A stretch of DNA of 38,231 bases from Candidatus Thorarchaeota archaeon (GCA_046758445.1 JBHIAE010000027.1:1-38231), one strand, 5' to 3'. Shown: positions 2,607 through 17,476, numbered from the stretch's first letter. Notes: a model not told the origin generated them from the letters alone. Made by a program: numbers and translations.

Positions 2607-3575
2607 ATGGCTGTCAAGAAGGAAACCATTGTCGAGTTGTACACTCGAACTCTAAAGGTTAGACTGTTCGAAGAGAAAGTCTGGGACCTCTTTGGAGAGA
2701 ATCTCGTTCCCGGCACCTTGCACCTCTATCTTGGACAGGAGGCCGTGGCTGCTGGTGTCACAACTGCTCTTAGAGAAACCGATTGGATACAGAGCACTCA
2801 TCGAGGTCATGGACACGTCATCGCCAAGGGAGCAGACATGAAGCCAGCATTGGCGGAGCTTCTAGGGAAGAAGACGGGCTCTTGCAAGGGAAAGGGAGGT
2901 TCCATGCATATCACCCAGTTCGATGTAGGCGTTCTTGGGGCCACGGGGGTAGTAGCTTCAGGACTACCCATTGCAGTTGGTGCAGCGCTCTCAGCTAAGA
3001 TGAGGAAGACCGATGAAGTGGTAGCCTGTTTCTTTGGAGACGGTGCTTCCAACAACGGAACTTTCGGAGAGTCATTAAACATGGCAGCCATATGGGAACT
3101 CCCACTGGTGTGGGTTGTAGAGAACAATCTCTATGCTATGGGAACCCCCATCACACTGACTTGTCCCAGTCAGAACATAGCAGACCGGGGAGAAGCATAC
3201 TGTACTCCTTCTGTGGTAGTGGATGGAAACAACGCCTTGGAGGTCTACGAGGCGGCTGTAGAGGCTGTGAAGAGGGCCAGAGAGGGAGGAGGACCGAGCC
3301 TGATTGAGTGTAAGACCTACAGGATGAAGGGACACTCACGATTCGATCCCGCCAAATACCGTCCTGAGGAAGAGGCTGAGCATTGGTTGGCCAGAGATGC
3401 AGTTGAGATAATCAGGAACATCGCATTGGAAAAGAAAGCTCTGACAGAGAAGCAAGCTGAGAAGATACGCAACACTCTGCAGAAGGCAGTCGACAAAGCG
3501 GCTGATTTCGCCATCAAATCTGAGCATCCCTCGCCAGAGGAAACACTTGATGATGTCTTTATGGAGGCTGCCTAG
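2607..3575 (+). CDS. pdhA: TPP-dependent 2-oxoacid (pyruvate/acetoin) dehydrogenase E1 alpha subunit
   Basis: HLYLGQEA, THRGHGH, GKGGSMH, TPP motif GDGA...ENN, TYRMKGHS..DPAKYR. Substrate (pyruvate vs acetoin) cannot be resolved. Confidence 0.92.
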   Translation: MAVKKETIVELYTRTLKVRLFEEKVWDLFGENLVPGTLHLYLGQEAVAAGVTTALRETDWIQSTHRGHGHVIAKGADMKPALAELLGKKTGSCKGKGGSMHITQFDVGVLGATGVVASGLPIAVGAALSAKMRKTDEVVACFFGDGASNNGTFGESLNMAAIWELPLVWVVENNLYAMGTPITLTCPSQNIADRGEAYCTPSVVVDGNNALEVYEAAVEAVKRAREGGGPSLIECKTYRMKGHSRFDPAKYRPEEEAEHWLARDAVEIIRNIALEKKALTEKQAEKIRNTLQKAVDKAADFAIKSEHPSPEETLDDVFMEAA

Positions 3576-4550
3576 ATGTCCGAAATAACGTACAGAGAGG
3601 CACTGAAACAGGGTCTCCGTGAGGAAATGATTAGAGATGAACGGGTCTTCATCATGGGAGAGGATGTCGGAAGGAACTGGGGTGGAGCCTTTAAGGTGAC
3701 AAAAGGCCTGGCTGAAGAGTTCGGCGATGAGCGAGTGAGGGACACTCCCATCTCTGAGAACACGATAGCGGGCGCAGCGATAGGAGCAGCCATTACCGGT
3801 TTGAGACCTGTTGCAGAAATCATGTTCGGAGATCTCATCACCTTGGCCATGGACCAGGTCTGCAATCAAGCTGCCAAGATGCGCTATATGTTCGGCGGAC
3901 AGACCTCAGTACCTCTAGTCCTGAGATCAGTCTTCGGAGGAGGTAAGAACATCGCATCCCACCACTCTCAGAGTCTTGAAGCTTGGTTCATGCACACGCC
4001 CGGACTCAAGATAGCCGTGCCTGCGTTTGCCTATGATGCCAAAGGCCTGATCAAGACAGCGATTCGGGACCCTGATCCAGTGATGTTCTTTGAGCACAAA
4101 CTGGTCTATGACAAGAAAGAGGAGGTGCCGGATGAGGAGTACTTGATTCCCTTGGGTGAGGCTAGGGTTCGGCGAGAGGGCGATGACGTCACATTATGGG
4201 GTACATTCTTCATGTTGCACAAAGCTCTAGAGGTAGCCGATGAGCTAGAGAAGGACGGGATTAGTGTTGAGGTCATCGACCCTCGAACTCTGGTTCCTTT
4301 TGACAGGAAGACACTCATTGACTCTGTCAAGAAGACCGGGCGACTGGTCCTTGTCACAGAAGAAACTCGGACAGGCGCGACCACGGCGGAAGTGGCAACA
4401 ATCGTTCAAGAAGAGGCATTTGATTGGTTGGATGCGCCCATAAAGAGAGTCAATGCCCCGGACACTCCTGTACCGTTTAGCCCGACACTGGAACAATACT
4501 TCATACCGGACAACAGGCGCATTGCAGAGGCCATCCGTGGAATTGTATGA
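3576..4550 (+). CDS. pdhB: 2-oxoacid dehydrogenase E1 beta subunit
   Basis: GEDVG, DTPISE, GLRPVAEIMF, HSQSLEAWF, DPDPVMFFEHK, IDPRTLVP, LDAPIKRV. Confidence 0.93.
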   Translation: MSEITYREALKQGLREEMIRDERVFIMGEDVGRNWGGAFKVTKGLAEEFGDERVRDTPISENTIAGAAIGAAITGLRPVAEIMFGDLITLAMDQVCNQAAKMRYMFGGQTSVPLVLRSVFGGGKNIASHHSQSLEAWFMHTPGLKIAVPAFAYDAKGLIKTAIRDPDPVMFFEHKLVYDKKEEVPDEEYLIPLGEARVRREGDDVTLWGTFFMLHKALEVADELEKDGISVEVIDPRTLVPFDRKTLIDSVKKTGRLVLVTEETRTGATTAEVATIVQEEAFDWLDAPIKRVNAPDTPVPFSPTLEQYFIPDNRRIAEAIRGIV

Positions 4551-4562
4551 GAGGCTTAACCG

Positions 4563-5783
4563 ATGGTGACCATAATGATCATGCAACGCATGAGCGTCGC
4601 CATGGAGTATGGTGTGATACTCAAATGGCTGAAGAAAGAGGGCGACCCTGTGAAGAAGGGTGAGCCAGTAGTTGAGATCTTTGGAGAGAAGAACGAGTTC
4701 GAGCTAGAAGCTCCAGAGGATGGAATCCTGCTTAGGATCCTCTGTGACGTCGATGACGAGATTCCCATTAGCGAACCAATCGCCATTGTCGGGAAGAAGG
4801 GAGAAGAGATTCCAGACGTGAAGCCTCGGAAGTTAGTCGACACTGTAGCTGCGTCAGCCCCGTCTACGACTACAACGCATGTCACTCCACCTCCGCAAGC
4901 AGCCTCGCCATCAGCAGCCGCGACCTCAGTGCTTCCGTCCGGCAGAATCAAGGCATCACCTAGAGCGAAGAAGCGTGCCAAGGAACTTGGTGTAGACCTA
5001 TCAAACATAGTTGGGACCGGAAAGGATGGACGAATCGTTGAGAAAGACGTCCTCTCGGCCGAAGCCGCTCCCCTGCCAGTAAAGGATAGTCGCAAGGTGA
5101 GCGAAGTAACGACATTGACACCACTGAGAAGGACTATTGCTAGAAGAATGACGCAGAGCGCTCAACATCCTCACATCACAATGATCACCGAGATTGACAT
5201 GACAGAGGTGGTCGCACTTAGAGAAGATATCAATGCACGCAATGCCAAGAAACTAGGTTTCAGAGTTTCATTCAATGACATAATCGTGAAAGGGGTTGCC
5301 GACATCCTTGAGAGGTTTCCGAAGTTCAACGCAACCCTCGTTGGGAATGAGCTTCATACATTCAAGGAAATCAACATCGGTGTGGCTATGGCAACAGAAG
5401 AGGGACTAATTGTACCAACAGTCAAGACTGCCAATAAGAAGTCAATCACGCAGATCGCTCAAGAAACGAAAGCTATGGGCAAGAAGGCAGAGAAGAATGA
5501 GCTGTCCCCAGAGGAGATGACAGGAAGCACGTTCACGGTGTCAAACCTTGGCCCTTTCAAAGTGGACCTGTTCATACCTGTGATCAACCCACCTGAAACG
5601 GCCATTCTTGCGTTAGGCCAAATCAAGAAGAAACCTGTGATCGTCGGCGATGAGGTCGTTGTGAGGTCTATGATGATGGCGAGTTGTGCCGTTGATCATA
5701 GGGTCCTAGATGGCGCTCCAGCAGGTGAGTTTCTACAGGCTCTGAAGGAATATCTTGAGAACCCGTACTTCATGAAGGTCTAA
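4563..5783 (+). CDS. pdhC: Dihydrolipoamide acyltransferase E2
   Basis: Lipoyl domain (WLKKEGD..EIFGEK), Ala/Pro/Thr linker, peripheral-subunit-binding domain (ASPRAKK..GTGKDGRI), catalytic DHRVLDG. Confidence 0.94.
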   Translation: MVTIMIMQRMSVAMEYGVILKWLKKEGDPVKKGEPVVEIFGEKNEFELEAPEDGILLRILCDVDDEIPISEPIAIVGKKGEEIPDVKPRKLVDTVAASAPSTTTTHVTPPPQAASPSAAATSVLPSGRIKASPRAKKRAKELGVDLSNIVGTGKDGRIVEKDVLSAEAAPLPVKDSRKVSEVTTLTPLRRTIARRMTQSAQHPHITMITEIDMTEVVALREDINARNAKKLGFRVSFNDIIVKGVADILERFPKFNATLVGNELHTFKEINIGVAMATEEGLIVPTVKTANKKSITQIAQETKAMGKKAEKNELSPEEMTGSTFTVSNLGPFKVDLFIPVINPPETAILALGQIKKKPVIVGDEVVVRSMMMASCAVDHRVLDGAPAGEFLQALKEYLENPYFMKV

Positions 5784-5863
5784 TCCTGCACCGTCGGGCA
5801 GCAATCATGCCATTGCAAAGGGTTATGAGATTCCAGAAAGAATTCTATCACAGAGGATTAGTG

Positions 5864-6061
5864 ATGATTGATTCTGGAACTTGTCCGAAGTGCGGAAGCA
5901 AACAAATAGCAGGACCTCATAGAATAATGGGGCAGCACCATGTGAGGGTTGACCTTCCGGGGTTGCTGACGGCCACCCTTGAATCTCTAACTTGCGGAAT
6001 ATGCGGCTATACTGAGCATTCTACATCCCATCTGATTCTATCACGAAAAGTCAAGACTTAA
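5864..6061 (+). CDS. Small zinc-ribbon protein (CPKC...CGICGYTE)
   Basis: Two CxxC knuckles; GAGGA SD-like sequence upstream of ATG 5864; C-terminus may be frameshifted. Confidence 0.6.
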   Translation: MIDSGTCPKCGSKQIAGPHRIMGQHHVRVDLPGLLTATLESLTCGICGYTEHSTSHLILSRKVKT

Positions 6062-6120
6062 GGTTGCGTGCCGCCTGTTCGGCAAGCTAGTCGGCCTGTA
6101 ACTGATGGTGATTGTGCGAA

Positions 6121-6918
6121 ATGTCTTGGCGTCTATTGGAAGGCCCAGATGTGGATATCTATCACAGTCTTGCAGTAGAGGAAACGCTTGTCAGAGTCTG
6201 CTCTCAATCGACGGACAAGACAAGCACTTTGAGACTTTGGAAGTCTGACTCCGCAGTTGTTATTGGTCGATTTCAATGCGTGCACAAGGAAGCTGACGTT
6301 CTTCGCTGCGAGAGGAAGGGTATACCAATTGCGCGCAGATTCACTGGCGGAGGTACAGTGTATCAGGACACGGGCAATCTCAACTTCACAATCTGTGCGG
6401 ATCGGAGTGAGCCATATGTTCCTAGAAAACTCCCAGATCTCTACAAGACGTTCGTGGGCGAGATAGCATATGAGCTACAGCAAATTGGAATACCAGCGCG
6501 ATTCGACAAGCAAAGGTCATGCCTACGAATCAAAGGGAGGAAGATATCAGGGACGGCCGGATGGATCAAGCGGGGAGTATCTTTCATTCACGGCACGTTG
6601 CTGATCAATGCAGACCTCTTGGCGCTCAAGAAGTGTCTCGAAGTTCCATCCAGTCAACCTAGATATCTGAGGAATGACGGAAAGACAAGGTGTCTTGAGA
6701 GCAAATGTGACGAGGTCACAAACATCAGCTCCGAGGTTCTGGAGCCACCCTCAGAAGAAGAGATTCGGGCCGCGATAGTCAGAAGCGTCGAGAAGATAGC
6801 TGACGTTTCAGTGGTTCGAGGTCACATGACCAAGGAAGAAACTGACACTGCGTATTCTTTATATCAGAGCCGCTATAGCCTGGCCGATTGGAACCTGGGG
6901 ACGCGTGCCCCAGAGTAG
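6121..6918 (+). CDS. lplA: Lipoate-protein ligase A family (catalytic domain only)
   Basis: LRLW...VVIGRFQ, RRFTGGGTVYQD.GNLNF, GRKISGTA, HGTLL; lacks the C-terminal domain; adjacent to E2. Confidence 0.9.
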   Translation: MSWRLLEGPDVDIYHSLAVEETLVRVCSQSTDKTSTLRLWKSDSAVVIGRFQCVHKEADVLRCERKGIPIARRFTGGGTVYQDTGNLNFTICADRSEPYVPRKLPDLYKTFVGEIAYELQQIGIPARFDKQRSCLRIKGRKISGTAGWIKRGVSFIHGTLLINADLLALKKCLEVPSSQPRYLRNDGKTRCLESKCDEVTNISSEVLEPPSEEEIRAAIVRSVEKIADVSVVRGHMTKEETDTAYSLYQSRYSLADWNLGTRAPE

Positions 6919-6935
6919 ACTTTGAGTTGACTAAT

Positions 6936-7283
6936 ATGGAAGAGGATGTAGAGAAGAAACTGAAGAGCTTCCAGAAGCACTTTGGCGCTCTAAACAGGGA
7001 CATACCTGACACCAGAAACGCATTCACTGACTTGCTAAAGACAGTACATAAGGATGGAGCACTTCCGGCCAAGTTCAAGGAGATAATGGCCATCGCAATC
7101 TCCATCATAACGCCTTGTGAACCATGCATGGTCTACCATACGAAGCAGGCGCTTGCTGCAGGGGCAACAAGAGACGAGATTATGGAGGCCGCGGCTGTCG
7201 CGATTGTAATGGGTGGAGGACCCGCCACAGCCCATGTGGCAACGGTTCAGGATGCGTTAGACAAGTGGGCGCCTCAAGAATAG
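6936..7283 (+). CDS. Carboxymuconolactone decarboxylase / AhpD-like protein with CxxC
   Basis: GALPAKFKEIMAIAI...CEPCMVYH...AGATRDEIMEA...MGGGP. Confidence 0.88.
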   Translation: MEEDVEKKLKSFQKHFGALNRDIPDTRNAFTDLLKTVHKDGALPAKFKEIMAIAISIITPCEPCMVYHTKQALAAGATRDEIMEAAAVAIVMGGGPATAHVATVQDALDKWAPQE

Positions 7284-8138
7284 CCTATGCCAAGTATATA
7301 GAAACTTCCCAGGCCAAAAGACGTGATTTGTGAATTAACGAGTTTCACCGGATGTAGCATGGACGACTCCGCCAGGTCGGGGCGTTACAAGTCCGTCGTC
7401 TACTGTGACCTCTTATTCACTTCTCAGCTTGGAAACATCACCCACTTGTGAGTGTTTCTTGGTCACATGCGATCTCCCTTATTGACAATTGATGTAAATG
7501 ACGCGAATCCTTGCGCGAAGCTATTCGGGTCAAGTAGGCTTCTTCCAGAAATATCCAAGAGCCCTGAATGGTTATGTACGACATATCAGAGATGTAGGTA
7601 TCCGTGAAAAGACGGAATGCCTTCAATGAAATCTGTTTGGAGGTGTAAGGAGAATGACTGGTCGCAGGAACACCCCGAAAGAATCGTAGGCCAATGACAT
7701 TGGCGAGATTCTGATCGTGGTTCACAGATTACTGTCGACCCTGGTCATCGAATGCAATGGCTCGTAAGATGATTAAGCGATGTGTAGGATTGATCAAAGT
7801 CTTGTCAACAGGACATGAACTGTCGTCCTAGCATGTGAATCTTGAACGAACATGAGGTCATGCAAGGAATTATGGCCTGCTCTTCTATTGTTTTGAAAAG
7901 TCATAAAGTATTCTAGGCCGGAAGAGAGTCTATGAGAGCCCTTTCCGAAGTCGCTTCAGGATTCTTGTAAAGATTCTATATATAGGAAACTGTTAGCTTG
8001 TGCAATCAAGAAGTACAGCGCCACCAGCACCAAATAGAAACTACGATGTTCGCCTCTCTGATAGTGCTTTTGCTTCGAGAAGGTGCAACACGCGCCGCCC
8101 GATGATGGTGATGCTAGGCTTCCTTCGAGGTGATTGCG

Positions 8139-10439
8139 ATGAGCAGACGAAGAGTGCTTAGGAAATCTCTATTGCTGGCTTGCTTAATGTTCTTGCTTGC
8201 CCGGATGGTCGGATTCTCAGTGAGTGTAGACAATTCCACCTCTGTTAAAATGATTGCGCAATCTCAGAATAGGAGTGGTAGTCAATACTCCCCTTCGAGC
8301 GCATGGGAATACACACCTTATCGCTATGCTGATCCTGTCTACGACACCAACACAGGCCGATTCATCAACATGACCAAGAACGTTGAGGAAAACAATGCAG
8401 TATCCGTAGACCAGATCTTCTTTCGATTGGGAACGTTGAAGATGCTCGACCCCAGCCTATCCACGCTCTCCCCTTCAGTCAAAGACTACTGGATATCTCA
8501 AGTGCTTTCATTCCAGAGAACCAGCGGAGGGTTTGGAGACTGGGTCGGTGACAGGAGTAGTGTATTGGCTACTCAGAAGGCTCTACAGATCTTGAGATGG
8601 CTCGGATATGCGGGTTTGGACACCGCTCTAGTTAGTGCATATCTTGACAGACTTCAAAATAGTATTACAGATGGGTATAACTCGCATCTTCTGGATACCG
8701 ATAGCGATGTCCATTCCACTTATCATGCTGTCAAATCATATCAACTGATCAATAGCTCTCCCTCTAATCCTTCAGCGGTATCTGATTACTTCAGGAGGGC
8801 TCAGAACCCAGATGGTGGTTTCGGTCTTCAGACGAACAGTGTCAAAGGCATTTATTGGACTTCCACGGCAACCGTGACACAGGATGCCATTCTTGGCCTG
8901 TCCGTTCTAGGTCAGAATGCATCAAATCCTTCGGCTGCATTGAGCTTTCTGCAGGGCCTCCAGCTTGTTTCGTCTGGAGGGTTTGTGAATGAAATCTCAC
9001 CAATTCTCACTACATCTGGTTCCTATTCTGCTTCTGCCTTGGAGGCAATCTACAGTCTGAACGGAACTCCAGCGAGTATCACTTCAGTTACAAACTATCT
9101 CTACTCCCTAGAAACGGTAGAGGGCGGTTTCAGACTTAAACCCTCTAGTGTAGATCGTTCGTTGATTGGTACTTACTATTGCGTCCTCGGTCTTTACATC
9201 TTGGGTCAGGCTCCAGCGAATGCGACCTCAACGTTGAACTATGTTCTGAGCCCTCCTCATTCCGATGGATATGGTGGAGCACCTGGAGAAACGCCTAGCC
9301 TAAGAGAAACTTTCGACGCAGTCTATTCTCAAGTCCTGATGGGGAATTATCCTCCTAATGTCCAAGGGATCATTGACTTCGTAGCATCTTATAGAAATCC
9401 TGATGGAGGCTATGGGCTGTCCGGATCGTATGTAGAGAGTACCCTCAGAGCAATTGAGATATACAACTTGATAGGTGCATCATTTTCCAACGTTTCTGAT
9501 ACCATTAGCTATCTCAAGAGCCTGCAGCAGCCTAATGGAGGCTTTGTGAAATACCGGGGAGAAACGATAAGCTATGTGGTTTCAACGTATCGAGCAGTCA
9601 GAGCGTTAAGTCTGCTCCAGAGTCAGCCAGAGAATCTTAATGGAGCCATTGCCTTCTTGCGGGAAGCTCAGAATGATGACGGGGGGTTCGGGGGCTATTC
9701 TGGAGACTCCAGTGACGTAACGAGTACGTATCGGGCTGTTAACGCACTTAGCATTCTGGGTGCATCGCCTTCCGATGTTACTTCCGTGATCAGCTTTCTG
9801 CGAAATAGCCAGAATCCTGATGGTGGATTTAGAAGGGGGCAATCTGACACATCTTTGCCCAAGAATGTTTCCAACATCATCTTCACCTATTCGGCCCTCA
9901 GAGCTCTTAGTATCCTGGACTCATATCCATTGGATGTAAGAGGTGCATACAACTATACTAACATGGTTCAGAATTTCGACGGTGGCTACGCAGAACATCC
10001 TGGCTTCACCTCCAACATTGCCTATACATTTGTGTCGCTTTACATACTGAGGCATTTCCACGAGTTCTCAGGGTTCAGAATAATCATTCCAAATGACTTC
10101 GATTCTGAAAGATTCCAGTATTATTTCGTTAGGATTGACATATTGGGAAGGATGGGTGGTCTTGAATACAGTATTACTAACACTAACAGTTCCAATGTTA
10201 TGATGCGAGGGACCCTCCAGTCAGAAGGCCCTGTCATACTTAATGTCGCCAACTTGGAAAACGGAACATACGTCCTTAGCGTCTATGCACGAGACCCGAC
10301 AGGGGCCGAAATCCTAACTGAAGTATCGCTCTTCATTGGATTGCGACCACCTCTCCTAGTCTATTTCGGATTGATTGCGGGGATTTCATTCCTAGCCCTA
10401 GCCTCCCATAGGTATCGTAAACGAGCCAGATCCAAGTAG
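8139..10439 (+). CDS. Secreted, C-terminally membrane-anchored prenyltransferase/squalene-cyclase (PFTB/QW) repeat protein
   Basis: About 11 Q-x-x-D-G-G-F/Y-G repeats, each followed by an S/T-Y/F-x-A helix; N-terminal MSRRRVLRK + hydrophobic signal; Ig-like C-terminal segment (NGTYVLSVYARD); TM helix + basic tail; many NxS/T sequons; GAGGTGA SD before ATG 8139. Confidence 0.85.
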   Translation: MSRRRVLRKSLLLACLMFLLARMVGFSVSVDNSTSVKMIAQSQNRSGSQYSPSSAWEYTPYRYADPVYDTNTGRFINMTKNVEENNAVSVDQIFFRLGTLKMLDPSLSTLSPSVKDYWISQVLSFQRTSGGFGDWVGDRSSVLATQKALQILRWLGYAGLDTALVSAYLDRLQNSITDGYNSHLLDTDSDVHSTYHAVKSYQLINSSPSNPSAVSDYFRRAQNPDGGFGLQTNSVKGIYWTSTATVTQDAILGLSVLGQNASNPSAALSFLQGLQLVSSGGFVNEISPILTTSGSYSASALEAIYSLNGTPASITSVTNYLYSLETVEGGFRLKPSSVDRSLIGTYYCVLGLYILGQAPANATSTLNYVLSPPHSDGYGGAPGETPSLRETFDAVYSQVLMGNYPPNVQGIIDFVASYRNPDGGYGLSGSYVESTLRAIEIYNLIGASFSNVSDTISYLKSLQQPNGGFVKYRGETISYVVSTYRAVRALSLLQSQPENLNGAIAFLREAQNDDGGFGGYSGDSSDVTSTYRAVNALSILGASPSDVTSVISFLRNSQNPDGGFRRGQSDTSLPKNVSNIIFTYSALRALSILDSYPLDVRGAYNYTNMVQNFDGGYAEHPGFTSNIAYTFVSLYILRHFHEFSGFRIIIPNDFDSERFQYYFVRIDILGRMGGLEYSITNTNSSNVMMRGTLQSEGPVILNVANLENGTYVLSVYARDPTGAEILTEVSLFIGLRPPLLVYFGLIAGISFLALASHRYRKRARSK

Positions 10440-10456
10440 AACGTGGTTGAGTGGAC

Positions 10457-13400
10457 ATGTTAGGACACAAGAAGAAAGCAACGGCGATTGCCTGGCTTTT
10501 GCTGCTCTTCTTGCCTTCTGTAATGGCCGGTTCAATGCTTAGTGTGAGCCGTGCTTATTCCTATCGTGTCACTGAACAGGATCACAATCATGATCCTGTT
10601 GAAGAGATCGGCTATCTACCTCGACATGCACGCCCTGTCAGTCGGGTCGGTCTGTCACAGTCAAAGCTCTTAGAGAATGAAACATTTTCACAGAGTGTGT
10701 TTTCATTCGTAAGAAGATCTCAAGAGACTGGACAGGACATACCCTCAATGGATATGGCTTACTACAAAGGTATGGCTCTCTTCTACCTTGACGCGTTTTC
10801 CCTTCCTGTTCCAAATGCGCTTAGACAAGACGCACTTGAGTTTGCTGCAACTTCTCGAAACAGTGATGGAGGCTATGGAAACTGGAAAGATGCAAGAAGC
10901 TCAATGGAGTCAACCTTTCAGTGCCTACAGCTTCTATTGGCTCACAACAATCTGACATCATTAGATTTGGCTGAAGTCAATAGAACTCTGGAATTCGTCC
11001 ATCAACTCAAGACACCGGAACAAGGATACTTACCCCTTTTGGATTGGGATGCTCCAGATGTTTCATCATCCTTCAGAGCGATAAGTGTCTACAACCTGCT
11101 TCAAAAGGGATTCCCTCAGCTGAATATGTCAATTGATAACTCTTCAACTGTATTCTTGGCCAATGCTTTTGCTCCGCCCATTTTTGCCAATGGAGCTTCA
11201 GGTTATGCAGAAAACGTTGGAGGGCCAGCTGAGTTGCTTGCCTCTCTAAATGCTATTCAAGTCTACCTTCTTTTGAACATAACGAATCCTCCAAACTTGG
11301 ATGCTATCGGCAAGTTTCTCAATAGCCTCGTGGCATTGAATGGGGGAGTGGCGGGCCGTCTAGGTGGATTTCCTACTACTGGGTATACGGCTTCTGCTTT
11401 GCATTTGTATCTTCTACTCAAGACTAAAACGGCTTTTGACATTGATAGCTATTTACCACCTAATTTCCTGGAAAACGCAAAGAACTACATTCTGGCAAAC
11501 AGGATTGCAGGATCAGGTTTTGCTGCATCAGAACGGGACACGACCCCAGAAGTAAGTTCCACTTTCTTTTCACTTCGTGTGTTGTACATGCTGGATTACT
11601 ATGGCTTCCTGTCTTCAATACCCGACCTGACCGGAGTATACAGTTTTATTGTGGAGGGCGTTCAGCCAACTTATGGTTTTGGAGACTACCCCGGAGACGT
11701 CCCTGACGTATCTTACTCTGCATACGCCATCCTGCTAGGGAGGATTCTTGGAAATACTAGCTGGATCAATCCAGCTGTTAAAGGATTCGTGGAGGACTCC
11801 TATCGTAGGTTGAGAGGAGGCTTTGGGTTCAGACCCTTCTCCACAGCCAGGGTGAAGTATACCTATTTCGGGATTAGAGCTCTTCGGGGTTTCGAGAGTC
11901 CTTTGGTTTCAGCACTCGACATAAGGCAATTCATTCTGAATTCTCAGAACGGTGACGGAGGGTTTGGAGAACAACCCGCCTCTAGGTTGAGTTATCTCAC
12001 TCATTCTTATTGGTCGATTGCCAGCTTAAGACTTCTGGGTGGAATTGACGAGAAGTATCTTGATTTCGATTCCGTTGTAAACTGGTTATCTTATCTGCGG
12101 AAACCAAATGGAACTTACTCTAATTTCCCCGGTCATAACTCCACACTGGCTTCAACCTACAGAGCCGTACAGGTTTGTATGATGCTGGGGCAATCTTATA
12201 CTAGAGATGACCCTCTCTACACGACTCTGATGAACTATCAACTACTTTCAGGTGGCTTCCTAAACTCACTTGACGAAGCAGCTCCCACAATGGAGGCCAC
12301 ATTCTATGGAGTTTCCATAGCTCTAATGCTCGGTCGATTGATTAACCGAACTCAGATCCGACAATTCGTCCTTTCTCTTCACAATAAAGATGGAGGTTTT
12401 GGGCTAAGACCCGGATACTCTAGTCGTGTGAAGTCCTCTTTCTACGCGATCCTCACACTTGAGCTACTAGAGTCGAGCAATGCAAATAGGTCATTGACAG
12501 ATTTCAGCGAGGACCCCTTTGATATCTATGCGCCCATTGTCAGTCCAGCTTTTATCCCTCGCATTGACACCAATAGGACCTTCCAGGGTTCCTACGTCCT
12601 AACTTCTACGATTATAGAACCGGAAAGTATCCTGGAAAGAACTTGGGTACAGGCTGAATGGACCAACGGGATTACGGGCGAAACGACACGTTTCAGATTC
12701 AATGGTTCCCCGAGCCAGTCCTATGCTAACGAATGGTCCTTCAGATTGGAAGCATTTAGAGAAGATGGGTTTCTGAGATTCAGAGTTCATGCGGTTGACG
12801 CAAACAACAACTCTGCTGCCACGTACTGGATGTACTTGAGATCACTGTCGACTCTGCCAGGTGGAGACGTATATCAAATGGATGTTTTTGGGGTCTTCCT
12901 ACCTTTGCTTTTTCCCTTCATACTCGCACTTGGTATTGTTGATGGTGCCATACAATATTCGAGAGGAAGAAGACTGGAGAAGAGTGAAGTACTGATGACG
13001 ATAAGAGATGATAAGACGGGTGGAATATTCGGTGATGAAACACGGAGCATGATTGCCCTCTTTTTAGTAATGGGTGCAATTGGTGTTTTGGCACGAATGT
13101 TTCTTCAGGATGCCATCATAGTTCTGGAGAACTCTTTGTTCCTGTTCAGATTCTTGATCGGCATGGTAGTAATATTGTTTGTGAAGTATGTAGTCGGTGT
13201 CAAGACATTAGGTCTGTTTGGTCCTGCGGTGCTGGTTATCTCCATGCTTCTGGTCGGTCCTGCATGGGGCATGGCAATCTTCCTCAATATATTCGTTCTA
13301 GGTTATGTCGTAAGATTGCTCTTGCGTCCCTTTAACTTGGCCTTAGGCTTTCGCATAGGAATCCTGATGATCTTCACTGTATCATACATAGGGCTTCTTG

Positions 13401-14674
13401 AACTGATCGGTGAGGTCTTTCTGATTCCCTCTCTTAGCGGCTCAATACTTGTCCCTATCATCATTACTCCCTGGTTCATTGACAAGTATGTTGTTGAGAT
13501 TGAACAAGAAGACCATCTTCAAGCCTTCTATCGCTTGATGGTGACTCTAGCTGTGACCTCAGTTTCGTTCCTGTTTATGAGTATTGACTCATTGGTGCAT
13601 GCCTTGGTTGTTAACCCTGAACTTTGGGTCGTTTTGACAGCCTCGACACTCTACTTTGGCCGGAATACCAAATACACCATGATTGACAAGAAGCGGTTCA
13701 GTAGATTGCTCAAGGGCGGGAAGGCCCCTCTGTCATTACAGATCCGCAATCGCAACTTCATAGCTAGATACAACTCACAGATTCTCTATCCTGTCATCAA
13801 TAAGCTCAATATGAAGGAACAGTTCGAGAAATGGAGGGTTCCGACAGCCGAGCTGCTTGCCATTGTTGAAAGCGAGAATCAACTTCCTACCATAATGAGG
13901 AGACTTGCCATAGAAGAGCAGTTCAAACATGGTTTTGTGGTCAAGCCGTCACAGAGTTTCGGCGGTAAGGGAATTCTCATTGTTAGAGCGAGAGATGGCA
14001 ATGGCAACTTCGTCGTGAGCAATGATGTCTGCAGTCCAACAGCAATTGAAAAGGAGATTCGAAGAATCCTTCAAGGTGAATATCTTACTAGTCAGACCCT
14101 CACTGACAGAGACATCGTGTTGATCGAGGAGAGAATCTCCACTCATCCTGATCTCGCGAAGATATCTACAGGTCTGCCTGATGTTCGAGTGATCATCTTC
14201 AGGGGAATTCCTGTCATGGCCATGATGAGATTGTCCACAATGGAAAGTCAAGGAAGGGCCAATTTGAAACAGGGGGCCATAGGTGCAGCAGTGAAACTCT
14301 CTAGTGGATTGGTGTATCGGGCAGAGATCAAGGGAACGCAGGTTGAAAGACATCCAGACACGAGAGAGAAGATAGTAGGCTTCGCTCTGGACAATTGGCT
14401 GGAGATTCTCTCAACTGCTTGCTTGGCTCAGAAGAGCAGTGGGCTGGGCTATGCTGGGGTTGATGTTGTAATCTGTGAGGACGGTCGTACACTTGTCCTC
14501 GAGGTAAACAAGAGACCGGGGCTAGAGATACAGAATGTTTGCCAAGATAGCCTACTTAGTAGGCTTGACATGATAGAGAAAGGGGATATTGACGCATCGG
14601 AATTCTCCGCAATAAGGGCAGCTCGATTCGCTATTGAGCTGGCTCTCGAACACTGGGAAAAGGAGGAATACTGA
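10457..14674 (+). CDS. Multidomain fusion: signal peptide + ~11 prenyltransferase-like repeats + Ig/Fn3-like + TM + 7TM_transglut-like domain + alpha-L-glutamate ligase-related (RimK-like) ATP-grasp
   Basis: Repeats (SRNSDGGYG, SQNGDGGFG, LHNKDGGFG); 7TM motifs VGVKTLGLFGP, NPELW...YFGRNTKY; ATP-grasp motifs RNRNFIARYN..LYPV, FVVKPSQSFGGKGI, GLPDVRVIIFRGIPVMAMMRL.T.ESQGRANLKQGAIG, GYAGVD, LEVNKRPGLEIQ. Confidence 0.88.
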   Translation: MLGHKKKATAIAWLLLLFLPSVMAGSMLSVSRAYSYRVTEQDHNHDPVEEIGYLPRHARPVSRVGLSQSKLLENETFSQSVFSFVRRSQETGQDIPSMDMAYYKGMALFYLDAFSLPVPNALRQDALEFAATSRNSDGGYGNWKDARSSMESTFQCLQLLLAHNNLTSLDLAEVNRTLEFVHQLKTPEQGYLPLLDWDAPDVSSSFRAISVYNLLQKGFPQLNMSIDNSSTVFLANAFAPPIFANGASGYAENVGGPAELLASLNAIQVYLLLNITNPPNLDAIGKFLNSLVALNGGVAGRLGGFPTTGYTASALHLYLLLKTKTAFDIDSYLPPNFLENAKNYILANRIAGSGFAASERDTTPEVSSTFFSLRVLYMLDYYGFLSSIPDLTGVYSFIVEGVQPTYGFGDYPGDVPDVSYSAYAILLGRILGNTSWINPAVKGFVEDSYRRLRGGFGFRPFSTARVKYTYFGIRALRGFESPLVSALDIRQFILNSQNGDGGFGEQPASRLSYLTHSYWSIASLRLLGGIDEKYLDFDSVVNWLSYLRKPNGTYSNFPGHNSTLASTYRAVQVCMMLGQSYTRDDPLYTTLMNYQLLSGGFLNSLDEAAPTMEATFYGVSIALMLGRLINRTQIRQFVLSLHNKDGGFGLRPGYSSRVKSSFYAILTLELLESSNANRSLTDFSEDPFDIYAPIVSPAFIPRIDTNRTFQGSYVLTSTIIEPESILERTWVQAEWTNGITGETTRFRFNGSPSQSYANEWSFRLEAFREDGFLRFRVHAVDANNNSAATYWMYLRSLSTLPGGDVYQMDVFGVFLPLLFPFILALGIVDGAIQYSRGRRLEKSEVLMTIRDDKTGGIFGDETRSMIALFLVMGAIGVLARMFLQDAIIVLENSLFLFRFLIGMVVILFVKYVVGVKTLGLFGPAVLVISMLLVGPAWGMAIFLNIFVLGYVVRLLLRPFNLALGFRIGILMIFTVSYIGLLELIGEVFLIPSLSGSILVPIIITPWFIDKYVVEIEQEDHLQAFYRLMVTLAVTSVSFLFMSIDSLVHALVVNPELWVVLTASTLYFGRNTKYTMIDKKRFSRLLKGGKAPLSLQIRNRNFIARYNSQILYPVINKLNMKEQFEKWRVPTAELLAIVESENQLPTIMRRLAIEEQFKHGFVVKPSQSFGGKGILIVRARDGNGNFVVSNDVCSPTAIEKEIRRILQGEYLTSQTLTDRDIVLIEERISTHPDLAKISTGLPDVRVIIFRGIPVMAMMRLSTMESQGRANLKQGAIGAAVKLSSGLVYRAEIKGTQVERHPDTREKIVGFALDNWLEILSTACLAQKSSGLGYAGVDVVICEDGRTLVLEVNKRPGLEIQNVCQDSLLSRLDMIEKGDIDASEFSAIRAARFAIELALEHWEKEEY

Positions 14675-14675
14675 G

Positions 14676-15833
14676 ATGAGCAGCAGGACCACAGTATCAA
14701 GAAAGGCATCCAGGATGACTCTCCGTTTTGCTGCTTCAGTATTAGTCTTGGCATTGATGGTCTTCGCGGTAGGAGCTGTCTACAGCCTTGAAACGCAGCA
14801 GACAGAAAGAGGGAAAGCCGATTTTCGCGTGAGTTATCATTTCTATCTCAAGAACGAAGGCCCCATAGATTTGACTTCCGTGACAGTGAGATTGGCTCTG
14901 CTGAAAGACTGGATACCAGTTCAGACTGTTGAAGACCTTGCCATCGACACGTTCCCGAATCAAACAACTACCGACATCTATGAGAATGAGTTCGTGTGGT
15001 ATGACTATAGAGATTTCAAGGTGAATCAATCGATTGATCTCTGGTTTCACGCAAATCTGACATTACCTTTTGTGGACTATGCATCAGCAGACCTTCCTAT
15101 CACCCCGTATAATACTGAACTAGACATCTACAAGCTGTATACAGCCTTTGAACCTCTTGCAGATAGTACAGACCCTAGTATAAGGAATGTGGCTCAATCT
15201 CTTGAAGTTCTCAATGACCCCCTGGGAACAGCATTCAATCTGTATAATTTCACGGCAAGTTTCCTTGACTATAGATTGATGAGCTCGACCAAAGGTGCAT
15301 CCTATGCATTGAGAAATGGAGTCGGTGATTGTGACGAGTATACTTATCTCTTTGTGGCGCTTTCGAGGTCTCTTGGCATCCCTGCAGTCGAACATACAGC
15401 TTGGTTAGCGGATTTTGCACCCGGTTTTGTGACATCAGATGAAGGTGCAGTTGCTCATGCTTATCCTATGTTCTATATTGAAGGTGTAGGACTGGTTCCC
15501 GCGGATCCAACAAGAGGGAAATCTAGTATCTTTGACAACTGGCTAAGGACCGACTACAAGAGAATAACTTTGACACGCGGTCCAGACAATCCCTACAGAC
15601 TGCTCAGATATCGATGGCTGCCCATTGAAGGACTTCCTGATCCATCTGTGTTCAGCAACTACACTATCATAATCCATGACGTGAATATCCAGTATACATC
15701 AATTCTGAGAAATATCATTCTCGTATCTCTAGTTGGAATTCCAGTTGTGTTCGGGATGGCCAACGTTCTCAATGGATATCAGTTAAGACAGCTCCAAAAG
15801 AAGAAGTTAGAAGAACTACTTTCTCCGGGATAG
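14676..15833 (+). CDS. Membrane-anchored transglutaminase-like domain protein
   Basis: GVGDCDEYTYLFVALSRSLGIPA (Cys), AHAYP (His), ADPT (Asp); N- and C-terminal hydrophobic helices; AGGAGG SD, start 1 nt after the upstream stop. Confidence 0.88.
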   Translation: MSSRTTVSRKASRMTLRFAASVLVLALMVFAVGAVYSLETQQTERGKADFRVSYHFYLKNEGPIDLTSVTVRLALLKDWIPVQTVEDLAIDTFPNQTTTDIYENEFVWYDYRDFKVNQSIDLWFHANLTLPFVDYASADLPITPYNTELDIYKLYTAFEPLADSTDPSIRNVAQSLEVLNDPLGTAFNLYNFTASFLDYRLMSSTKGASYALRNGVGDCDEYTYLFVALSRSLGIPAVEHTAWLADFAPGFVTSDEGAVAHAYPMFYIEGVGLVPADPTRGKSSIFDNWLRTDYKRITLTRGPDNPYRLLRYRWLPIEGLPDPSVFSNYTIIIHDVNIQYTSILRNIILVSLVGIPVVFGMANVLNGYQLRQLQKKKLEELLSPG

Positions 15834-16013
15834 AATATCGGTCCGAGAAAAGAATGATGACTGAGAGAGGACGATACACCGGGATAATCTTCGTTTCCAT
15901 CGATTAACACCCTTTGGAAGAGCTGTTATTCAGCGCAACTGCCCACCCCAGACTTGTGGTTGGGCAAGCCAATTACCAAATGGGCCTACAGCAAGAGCCG
16001 TCTGGAGTTCGGT

Positions 16014-17131: not shown

Positions 17132-17425
17132 TCAAGAATCAGTTGCGTTGTTGCATCGTTCGAGAGCAACAAAGAAGCCCGATGTTTCGTCACCCTCGTC
17201 CACAGAATGAACCCTGAAGTTGGTGCCATGTTCGTTCCGCATTCTGTTTGCCACATGTGCGCCAATGAACTTCTTCCTCACATCTGAGAGTCTACCCTTC
17301 CAGAGAAAGATGCTCTTGGTAGTGTCGTCAACAATGCAGTAGACGCTGTGAGTTTCTAGATTGTCCTTTGACAAATCGACCTCAATCAGGGTGCCGTCAT
17401 CCTGCATTTCAAATCCATTGGCCAT
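17132..17425 (-). CDS. Single-domain gelsolin-like protein (eukaryotic signature protein)
   Basis: LETHSVYCIVD...IFLWKGRLS.VRKKF.GA..A...VDEGDE..GF..AL matches the gelsolin-domain pattern; start refined to ATG 17425. Confidence 0.8.
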   Translation of the reverse strand: MANGFEMQDDGTLIEVDLSKDNLETHSVYCIVDDTTKSIFLWKGRLSDVRKKFIGAHVANRMRNEHGTNFRVHSVDEGDETSGFFVALERCNNATDS

Positions 17426-17476
17426 AGGGATGCTACCCCGCACAATCCATCTGCTTATGTGACATCTCGGTTAAGC

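Follow-up and report, generated by a model that had tools for sequence, protein, structure and literature searches.

Background

The Pfam families considered here were reportedly defined by Iyer et al. in 2009. The closest described counterpart of the operon studied here is RloABC of Pseudomonas aeruginosa, a tightly linked operon encoding a secreted retropepsin (RloA), a catalytically inactive transglutaminase (TGase)-fold ectodomain joined to the N-terminus of a seven-transmembrane 7TM_transglut core (RloB) and an internal, RimK-related ATPgrasp_ST ligase (RloC). The Rlo system has a role in osmotic-stress tolerance and envelope integrity (bioRxiv 10.1101/2025.03.18.643919; PMC12239564), and a triple rloA protease mutant is rescued by loss of rloB or rloC (bioRxiv 10.1101/2025.03.18.643919), indicating that the protease and the ligase/7TM proteins act in one pathway. 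RloB and RloC matter in bacteria for envelope integrity, antibiotic tolerance and vesicle formation; full-text searches on the Rlo system returned the Rlo preprint and a Shewanella vesicle screen, and nothing on archaea. Here we analyze a three-gene operon (genes A, B and C) at positions 8139-15833 of contig JBHIAE010000027.1 (C27) from a Candidatus Thorarchaeota archaeon (GCA_046758445.1), a 3.25 Mb, 92.7% complete Asgard genome. The whole contig of 38,231 nucleotides (nt) is the window referred to below. The products of this operon appear to hold the parts of RloB and RloC, cut at other points and joined to extracellular toroids.

The operon had been put forward, from its DNA alone, as an undescribed archaeal system for surface peptide synthesis, export and cross-linking. 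Full-text searches combining Asgard with transglutaminase and prenyltransferase, or using the Pfam names, found no paper on this architecture, in agreement with its being undescribed. What is new is the pan-archaeal cassette, the split between cysteine and serine nucleophiles in C, the correspondence of C to the whole RloB ectodomain, and the alternation of C with peptidases.

Relationship of the operon to the Rlo system

All the domains named in the original prediction (Prenyltrans, 7TM_transglut, ATPgrasp_ST and Transglut_core) were found with Pfam hidden Markov models. Protein B matched Prenyltrans in its N-terminal part, 7TM_transglut (PF14402) at residues 902-1086 (E 6e-20, against a bit-score cut-off of 25) and ATPgrasp_ST (PF14397) at residues 1099-1377 (E 1.3e-52; 179 bits, cut-off 31), whereas C matched Transglut_core (PF01841) with 46.7 bits (cut-off 23). 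With hhalign, B 903-1091 mapped onto residues 322-510 of bacterial RloB (Prob 99.9%, E 3e-31), so that the membrane domain of B consists of two extra helices followed by the RloB-type seven. The 7TM core carries intramembrane Pro, Trp, Arg, Asp and Glu motifs that are strongly conserved between bacteria and archaea. These results confirm that a 7TM_transglut-like domain and a RimK-related ATP-grasp ligase lie in one polypeptide, although this fusion is not the distinctive trait it was taken for, being common in archaea and present also in some bacteria.

Among NCBIfam models the RloB model was also matched, and TIGR02291 ("alpha-L-glutamate ligase-like") scored 209 bits, below its equivalog cut-off of 314, indicating that the ligase belongs to the same family and is not an equivalog. 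It has K1165, a Gly-rich loop at 1169-1174, E1226, D1338, E1351, N1353 and R1355. All 21 aligned relatives retain the Gly loop, the Lys and the Mg ligands (Asp/Glu/Asn), with K1165, E1226, D1338, E1351 and N1353 invariant. The Asp/Glu/Asn segment aligns to RimK, to which the Pfam match was marginal (22 bits). The C-terminal 608 residues of B were modelled with AlphaFold2 (AF2) at a mean predicted local distance difference test score (pLDDT) of 83.8; Foldseek and VIA-wide matches to this model were to the ATP-grasp domain only, which filled the hit list over the 7TM part, and the nearest structures were ArgX/LysX and RimK. Protein B is on these grounds predicted to carry, on the cytoplasmic side, an ATP-grasp amidoligase of the RimK/LysX type in which no ATP/Mg residue is missing. 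Its sequence similarity to RimK and LysX/ArgX is weak (phmmer against PDB, E 0.009) and, unlike them, it is membrane-tethered and has no identified S6- or LysW-type substrate.

Residues 32-301 of C were aligned by hhalign to RloB 31-272 over 239 columns (Prob 98%, E 2.6e-13). Since this alignment spans the beta-sandwich as well as the TGase core, C is the RloB ectodomain as a free protein, that is, a homologue of the whole RloB periplasmic part made as a separate, doubly anchored ecto-protein. The TGase of this operon had been described as an added enzyme; the alignment points instead to an RloB ectodomain split off into its own gene. One idea, that the C-terminal helix of C supplies helix 1 of the RloB 7TM domain, was rejected, as that RloB helix aligns to B 896-915. 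The intact triad originally noted in C was confirmed (Cys219/His261/Asp277, numbered from the ATG at 14676) and is conserved in 14 of 15 Asgard orthologues. A profile match (E 4e-9) was also obtained to the periplasmic TGase domain of P. aeruginosa TgpA (6g49), which shares with C an extracytoplasmic Cys-His-Asp TGase-fold core on a membrane protein. The likeness to 6g49, as to the TGase-fold cysteine peptidase 3isr (E 2e-7), is at the level of the core domain alone; unlike both, C has an N-terminal beta-sandwich of the RloB type and is encoded beside a ligase in one operon.

For C paired with the membrane part of B, complex prediction returned an interface score (ipSAE) of 0.46, the best control giving 0.00; at least 88% of contacts agreed between runs, and partner pLDDT was at least 83. 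Of 80 solved complexes used for calibration, 58 reached this mark, as did 2 of 110 mismatched pairs; the band from there up to 0.60 held 7 of the 80 solved complexes and both mismatches. The modelling lends weak support to an arrangement in which C docks on the 7TM portion of B.

The coding organization agrees with that first described: three + strand open reading frames (ORFs) fill the region (Table 1), with gaps of 17 nt between A and B and 1 nt between B and C, and an AAGGAGG motif lies directly 5' of the C start. All three proteins are membrane-anchored by hydrophobic segments or transmembrane (TM) helices. Those of A and C stand at both termini and have cytoplasmic ends rich in Lys and Arg, and the nine helices of B place its ectodomain outside and its ligase inside. 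N-glycosylation sequons number 12, 14 and 5 in the ectodomains of A, B and C and 0 in the ATP-grasp domain, and the same bias was seen in 11 orthologues. The anchors, the sequon counts and the match between the final seven helices of B and the 7TM domain of RloB agree in a predicted topology with the ligase inside and the toroids and TGase outside, as had been proposed.

Table 1. Predicted features of the operon (positions in the window; aa, amino acids).
Feature	Position	Strand	Description
Gene A	8139..10439	+	766 aa; Pfam Prenyltrans 3e-54; AF2 model pLDDT 88.8; signal anchor, disordered linker, two toroids (~65-644), beta-sandwich (647-733), C-terminal TM helix, basic tail
Gene B	10457..14674	+	1405 aa from ATG; 1407 aa from in-frame GTG at 10451; toroid ectodomain, 9 TM helices, cytoplasmic ATP-grasp ligase
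B ectodomain toroid region	10703..12550	+	P0002 residues ~85-700; Pfam Prenyltrans 3e-40
B membrane domain	12884..13666	+	Residues 812-1072; PF14402 72 bits; two extra helices (812-834, 866-884), conserved 7TM_transglut core (896-1072)
Internal ATG, Met849 of B	12995..12997	+	Cytoplasmic loop between toroid anchor helix and eight-helix/ligase part
B ATP-grasp ligase domain	13733..14644	+	Residues 1095-1398
Gene C	14676..15833	+	385 aa; PF01841 4e-12; N-terminal TM, beta-sandwich, transglutaminase-fold core, C-terminal TM
C triad codons	15330..15506	+	Cys 15330-15332, His 15456-15458, Asp 15504-15506

Alternation of the TGase-fold protein with peptidases

Relative to RloABC, the 7TM core is here joined to the ligase and not to the TGase domain, and the TGase domain is separate and keeps Cys-His-Asp. 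The ectodomain position of the 7TM protein is held by toroids, as the original prediction stated for the place of the inactive bacterial TGase. One or two double-toroid ectodomains have been added, in an archaeon without a periplasm. An RloA-type retropepsin (PF05618) was found neither in the window nor in the 92.7%-complete genome nor at any archaeal locus sampled, in line with the lack of a protease gene noticed earlier. The archaeal versions are in this respect a natural dissection of the bacterial system, the 7TM core staying always with the ligase and the RloB ectodomain being free and catalytically equipped.

In bacteria with split RloB and RloC, Cys and His were lost in all nine RloB proteins sampled, and an RloA-like ORF was present at 39 of 46 loci, with Pfam confirmation in the five checked (5/5). 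Bacterial TGase-7TM-ligase triple fusions kept Cys-His-Asp in 10 of 17 cases checked, and the one such locus examined (L019) had no RloA. In a third archaeal clade, nine loci without TGase have a subtilase adjacent or fused, and in one fusion (P0067) a TM helix puts the subtilase outside. No peptidase gene was found at the loci with a complete triad, whether in Asgards, in other archaea or in bacterial L019. In bacteria of the Candidate Phyla Radiation (CPR), ATPgrasp_ST is fused directly to the carboxypeptidase-type DUF1704. These CPR/Gracilibacteria fusions (P0033-P0049; tyrosine/phenylalanine carboxypeptidase type) are of about 790 aa, and P0036 additionally carries RloA-type PF05618. The RloB ectodomain alternates in this way with retropepsins and subtilases across lineages, and the ligase is accompanied either by an outside peptidase or by a TGase-fold protein that retains its full set of catalytic residues.

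In the alignment of 16 C proteins, His and Asp never vary, irrespective of a Cys or Ser nucleophile. Cys is found in the Asgard clade and in L017, the others (9 of 16) having Ser. The peptidase/TGase alternation, together with the P. aeruginosa epistasis, favours C as an outside (iso)peptide-processing enzyme, which we regard as the most likely role of this protein from the comparisons above. Pseudomurein endoisopeptidases are TGase-fold cysteine peptidases, and within the PF01841 superfamily sequence and fold do not tell transamidases from hydrolases. In the same way, the role of C as a glue, originally proposed, loses ground: the replacement of Cys by Ser in most non-Asgard C proteins and the mutual exclusivity with peptidases point to peptidase-like processing.

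Proposed function and alternative explanations

On balance, the operon is probably an archaeal form of the Rlo-type envelope module, with RloB and RloC cut elsewhere, toroids added and RloA missing, in which C processes an (iso)peptide outside the cell. On the cytoplasmic side of the membrane the ligase would assemble a short chain or tail of amino acids, and the 7TM core would relay the product, or its effect, outward. C, docked on the 7TM core, would perform an acyl-enzyme step outside, most likely one in which an (iso)peptide bond is trimmed or cleaved by hydrolysis, and so do the job of the secreted retropepsin RloA in bacteria and of the subtilase in the third archaeal clade. The toroids could serve as binding platforms for the product or its carrier, and the physiological role, by analogy with the Rlo phenotypes, may be cell-envelope maintenance. 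The testable claim is that a single conserved membrane domain couples an inside ligase to an (iso)peptidase acting outside, and the C ectodomain and the ATP-grasp domain are soluble domains available for assays. The free C-terminus of RloB was also considered as the ligase substrate; as a general rule this is improbable, because in archaea that terminus is joined to the ligase.

Several observations weigh against the Rlo-type reading. To our knowledge no relative of RloB or RloC has a known biochemical activity, and we infer the product, its export and the chemistry of C. Haloarchaeal 7TM-ligase genes adjoin neither a TGase nor a peptidase. No RloA match was found at 7 of the 46 bacterial loci, some of them truncated contigs, and of the three redundant RloA paralogues of P. 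aeruginosa two are encoded away from the operon, so that the absence of a protease from a locus is weak evidence. In addition, the best solved relative of C, TgpA, is annotated as a protein-glutamine gamma-glutamyltransferase, and exported transglutaminases are the favoured candidates for pseudomurein cross-linking (PMC11915815), which leaves a transamidase role for C open.

Such a role is central to the function first proposed for the operon, in which a peptide polymer such as polyglutamate is exported by the 7TM domain and C, as a true transglutaminase, cross-links it to the toroids in a covalent surface layer. The name given to TgpA and the Asgard-wide conservation of the intact triad agree with it, as does the proposed attribution of the Glu-Lys cross-links of pseudomurein to exported transglutaminases in a pathway with ATP-grasp ligases (PMC11915815). 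The disordered Ser/Gln-rich linker of A (residues 21-53 in the AF2 model) and the constant co-encoding of toroids and C in two archaeal clades also fit. On the other hand, 9 of the 16 C proteins have a Ser nucleophile, peptidases functionally replace the TGase slot in other lineages, and one locus (L032) has C and no adjacent toroid gene. We know of no transglutaminase with a Ser nucleophile. Moreover, transglutaminase acyl donors are Gln carboxamides, not Glu carboxylates, so that polyglutamate is a poor substrate. We therefore consider this explanation unlikely, and none of the results supports a polyglutamate product, its export through the 7TM domain or a covalently cross-linked layer.

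A receptor-coupled ligase, in which the toroids and C sense an outside ligand or the state of the envelope, the 7TM domain signals and the ATP-grasp modifies an intracellular target without export, in the way ribosomal protein S6 is glutamylated by RimK, is distinctly unlikely. It would account for the structural proximity of the ligase to RimK and LysX/ArgX, enzymes that lengthen cytoplasmic proteins at their C-termini, for the interchangeability of the 7TM-attached ectodomain across lineages (TGase, toroid or none) and for toroids lacking catalytic motifs. However, the conserved 7TM core with its intramembrane motifs looks more like a transporter or enzyme than a relay, and the recurrent extracytoplasmic peptidase partners together with the rloA rescue suggest a product or target that can be reached from outside.

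It is very doubtful that the cassette is a complete extracellular peptide-polymer machine, with a carrier-bound peptide flipped by the 7TM domain, toroids holding the carrier and C transpeptidating a wall-like mesh; if true, it would be a Ddl/MurJ/transpeptidase analogue in lineages thought to have no such polymer (Asgard, DPANN and Thermoplasmata). Highly improbable is a lipid-linked modifier, in which the ATP-grasp amidates a dolichol-linked carboxylate, the 7TM domain flips it, the toroids hold the isoprenoid carrier and C transfers or trims: archaeal lipid carriers are isoprenoid, Pfam places the ligase in ATPgrasp_ST ("sugar-transfer associated") and the structures closest to the toroids are terpene cyclases and the isoprenoid-binding beta subunits of prenyltransferases, but no glycosyltransferase or other glycan gene is conserved beside the cassette, the Zn ligands and DxDD of isoprenoid enzymes are missing, and the proposal has analogy as its sole basis.

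The toroid proteins

The AF2 model of A comprises 24 helices paired into 12 hairpins; a beta-sandwich and then a TM helix come after these. Its top Foldseek matches were the beta subunits of RabGGTase, GGTase3 and FTase (TM-score TMt 0.68-0.70, root-mean-square deviation ~3.6 A, ~283 columns), whose superposition covers half of the helical part, while the whole of it aligns loosely to two-domain terpene cyclases. Since half of A fits a prenyltransferase beta subunit and the whole fits the two-domain cyclases, each "barrel" is modelled as two tandem prenyltransferase-beta-like alpha/alpha toroids. The prenyltransferase-like fold originally described was confirmed (PF00432), and the count of about 11 repeats per barrel is refined to two tandem toroids of 12 hairpins in all. 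The double-toroid region of B, which we infer from its homology to A over ~600 residues (~24% identity over ~600-700 residues), is a diverged paralogue of A. The toroid proteins of non-Asgards resemble A far more than B.

The A and B toroids share with prenyltransferase beta subunits and class II terpene cyclases the alpha/alpha toroid fold, the repeated GG[FY] motif and the PFTB repeats, and their tandem layout resembles that of squalene-hopene cyclase. They differ in being extracellular and membrane-anchored and in having no Zn site, no DxDD and no alpha subunit. No invariant Cys or His was found across 13 A and 12 B orthologues, and the DxDD motif is absent from both A and B, ruling out that the toroids work as prenyltransferases, cyclases or A2M-like thioester proteins. 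The toroids of A and of the B N-terminal region, held at the outer face of the membrane, are presumably non-catalytic, and Asgard, DPANN and Thermoplasmata cells would, from these predictions, carry large prenyltransferase-like toroids on their surface. A Woesearchaeota toroid protein (L029:4316-6988) also matched the Pfam Ribophorin II N-terminal domain (PF05817, 28.5 bits, cut-off 23.4), a match not given by A or B of the window.

In a Heimdall locus (L015/L024) B is split exactly at the seam into an anchored toroid protein and an eight-helix ligase protein. Of 12 fused orthologues, 9 have a Met at the seam column (Met849 in B), and the stand-alone form P0050 begins with this Met. The split Heimdall B and the seam Met indicate that B arose by fusion of a duplicated A-like gene with a ligase gene. 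The Met849 ATG, preceded by a weak purine-rich stretch, could be a fossil of the ancestral start or an internal start giving a barrel-less ligase.

Distribution and genomic context

The toroid-7TM-ligase fusion was found in 28 protein clusters of 1248-1509 aa. Within the phylum, 17 of 400 genomes carry it, and all 16 other genomes of this genus lack it. Thorarchaeota metagenome-assembled genomes hold the closest relatives of the proteins encoded by the operon. The order A-B-C is kept in all 16 Asgard loci within contig reach, with unrelated flanks, so A, B and C are found together wherever the length of the contig permits; only the cassette genes recur across 19 loci. Within 8001-16000, GC is 45-48% in the operon and 48-52% in the flanks. 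The GC difference and the patchy occurrence suggest lateral transfer of the operon among Asgards.

Beyond Asgards, an exhaustive HMMER search and a scan of named genomes revealed a wide spread among archaea of 7TM-ATP-grasp fusions 520-620 aa long. The order toroid, 7TM-ligase, TGase-fold protein was found also in Woesearchaeota, Micrarchaeota, Thermoplasmata and L017, and a Thaumarchaeota contig beginning at the ligase gene has B and C only. This unfused cassette has the same three families in the same order and is likewise self-contained, with genes overlapping or nearly so and a 7TM-ATP-grasp protein of 540-580 aa. It differs in having one toroid protein only, a 7TM-ligase without ectodomain and a Ser nucleophile in the TGase-fold protein, except in L017, a sister of the Asgard clade, which has Cys. 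The cassette is therefore pan-archaeal, and only the second toroid, fused onto B, is Asgard-specific. The surface operon originally proposed for an Asgard archaeon is thus conserved, self-contained and undescribed, and is not confined to Asgards.

A midpoint-rooted FastTree phylogeny of the ligase domain suggested four groups: the Asgard clade with L017 as sister; a DPANN/Thermoplasmata/Thaumarchaeota group with haloarchaea nested inside; a Bathyarchaeia/Methanomassiliicoccales group; and bacterial RloC. One Asgard genome (G077, L014:3509-4552) carries a Ser-type unfused cassette of the DPANN/Thermoplasmata clade and not the Asgard fused type. In Haloarcula japonica (L040:6926-9411), a cultivable host of a ligase form, the 7TM-ATP-grasp gene overlaps a downstream DUF1508 gene, with no toroid, TGase or peptidase gene nearby.

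A defence-system reading of the operon was rejected, as A, B and C all gave no PADLOC match. A TATA-like run (tatatata) at 7974-7990, ~155 nt upstream of the A start in an intergenic region of ~400 nt, is a possible archaeal promoter. The genes directly upstream (2607-7283) form a cluster for E1alpha/E1beta/E2 of a 2-oxoacid dehydrogenase, along with a lipoate-protein ligase and a CMD/AhpD-like protein; an E3 gene was not seen there. Downstream, in keeping with an Asgard origin, a 103-aa ORF on the - strand (17132-17443) encodes a single gelsolin repeat (PF00626, 5.6e-05).

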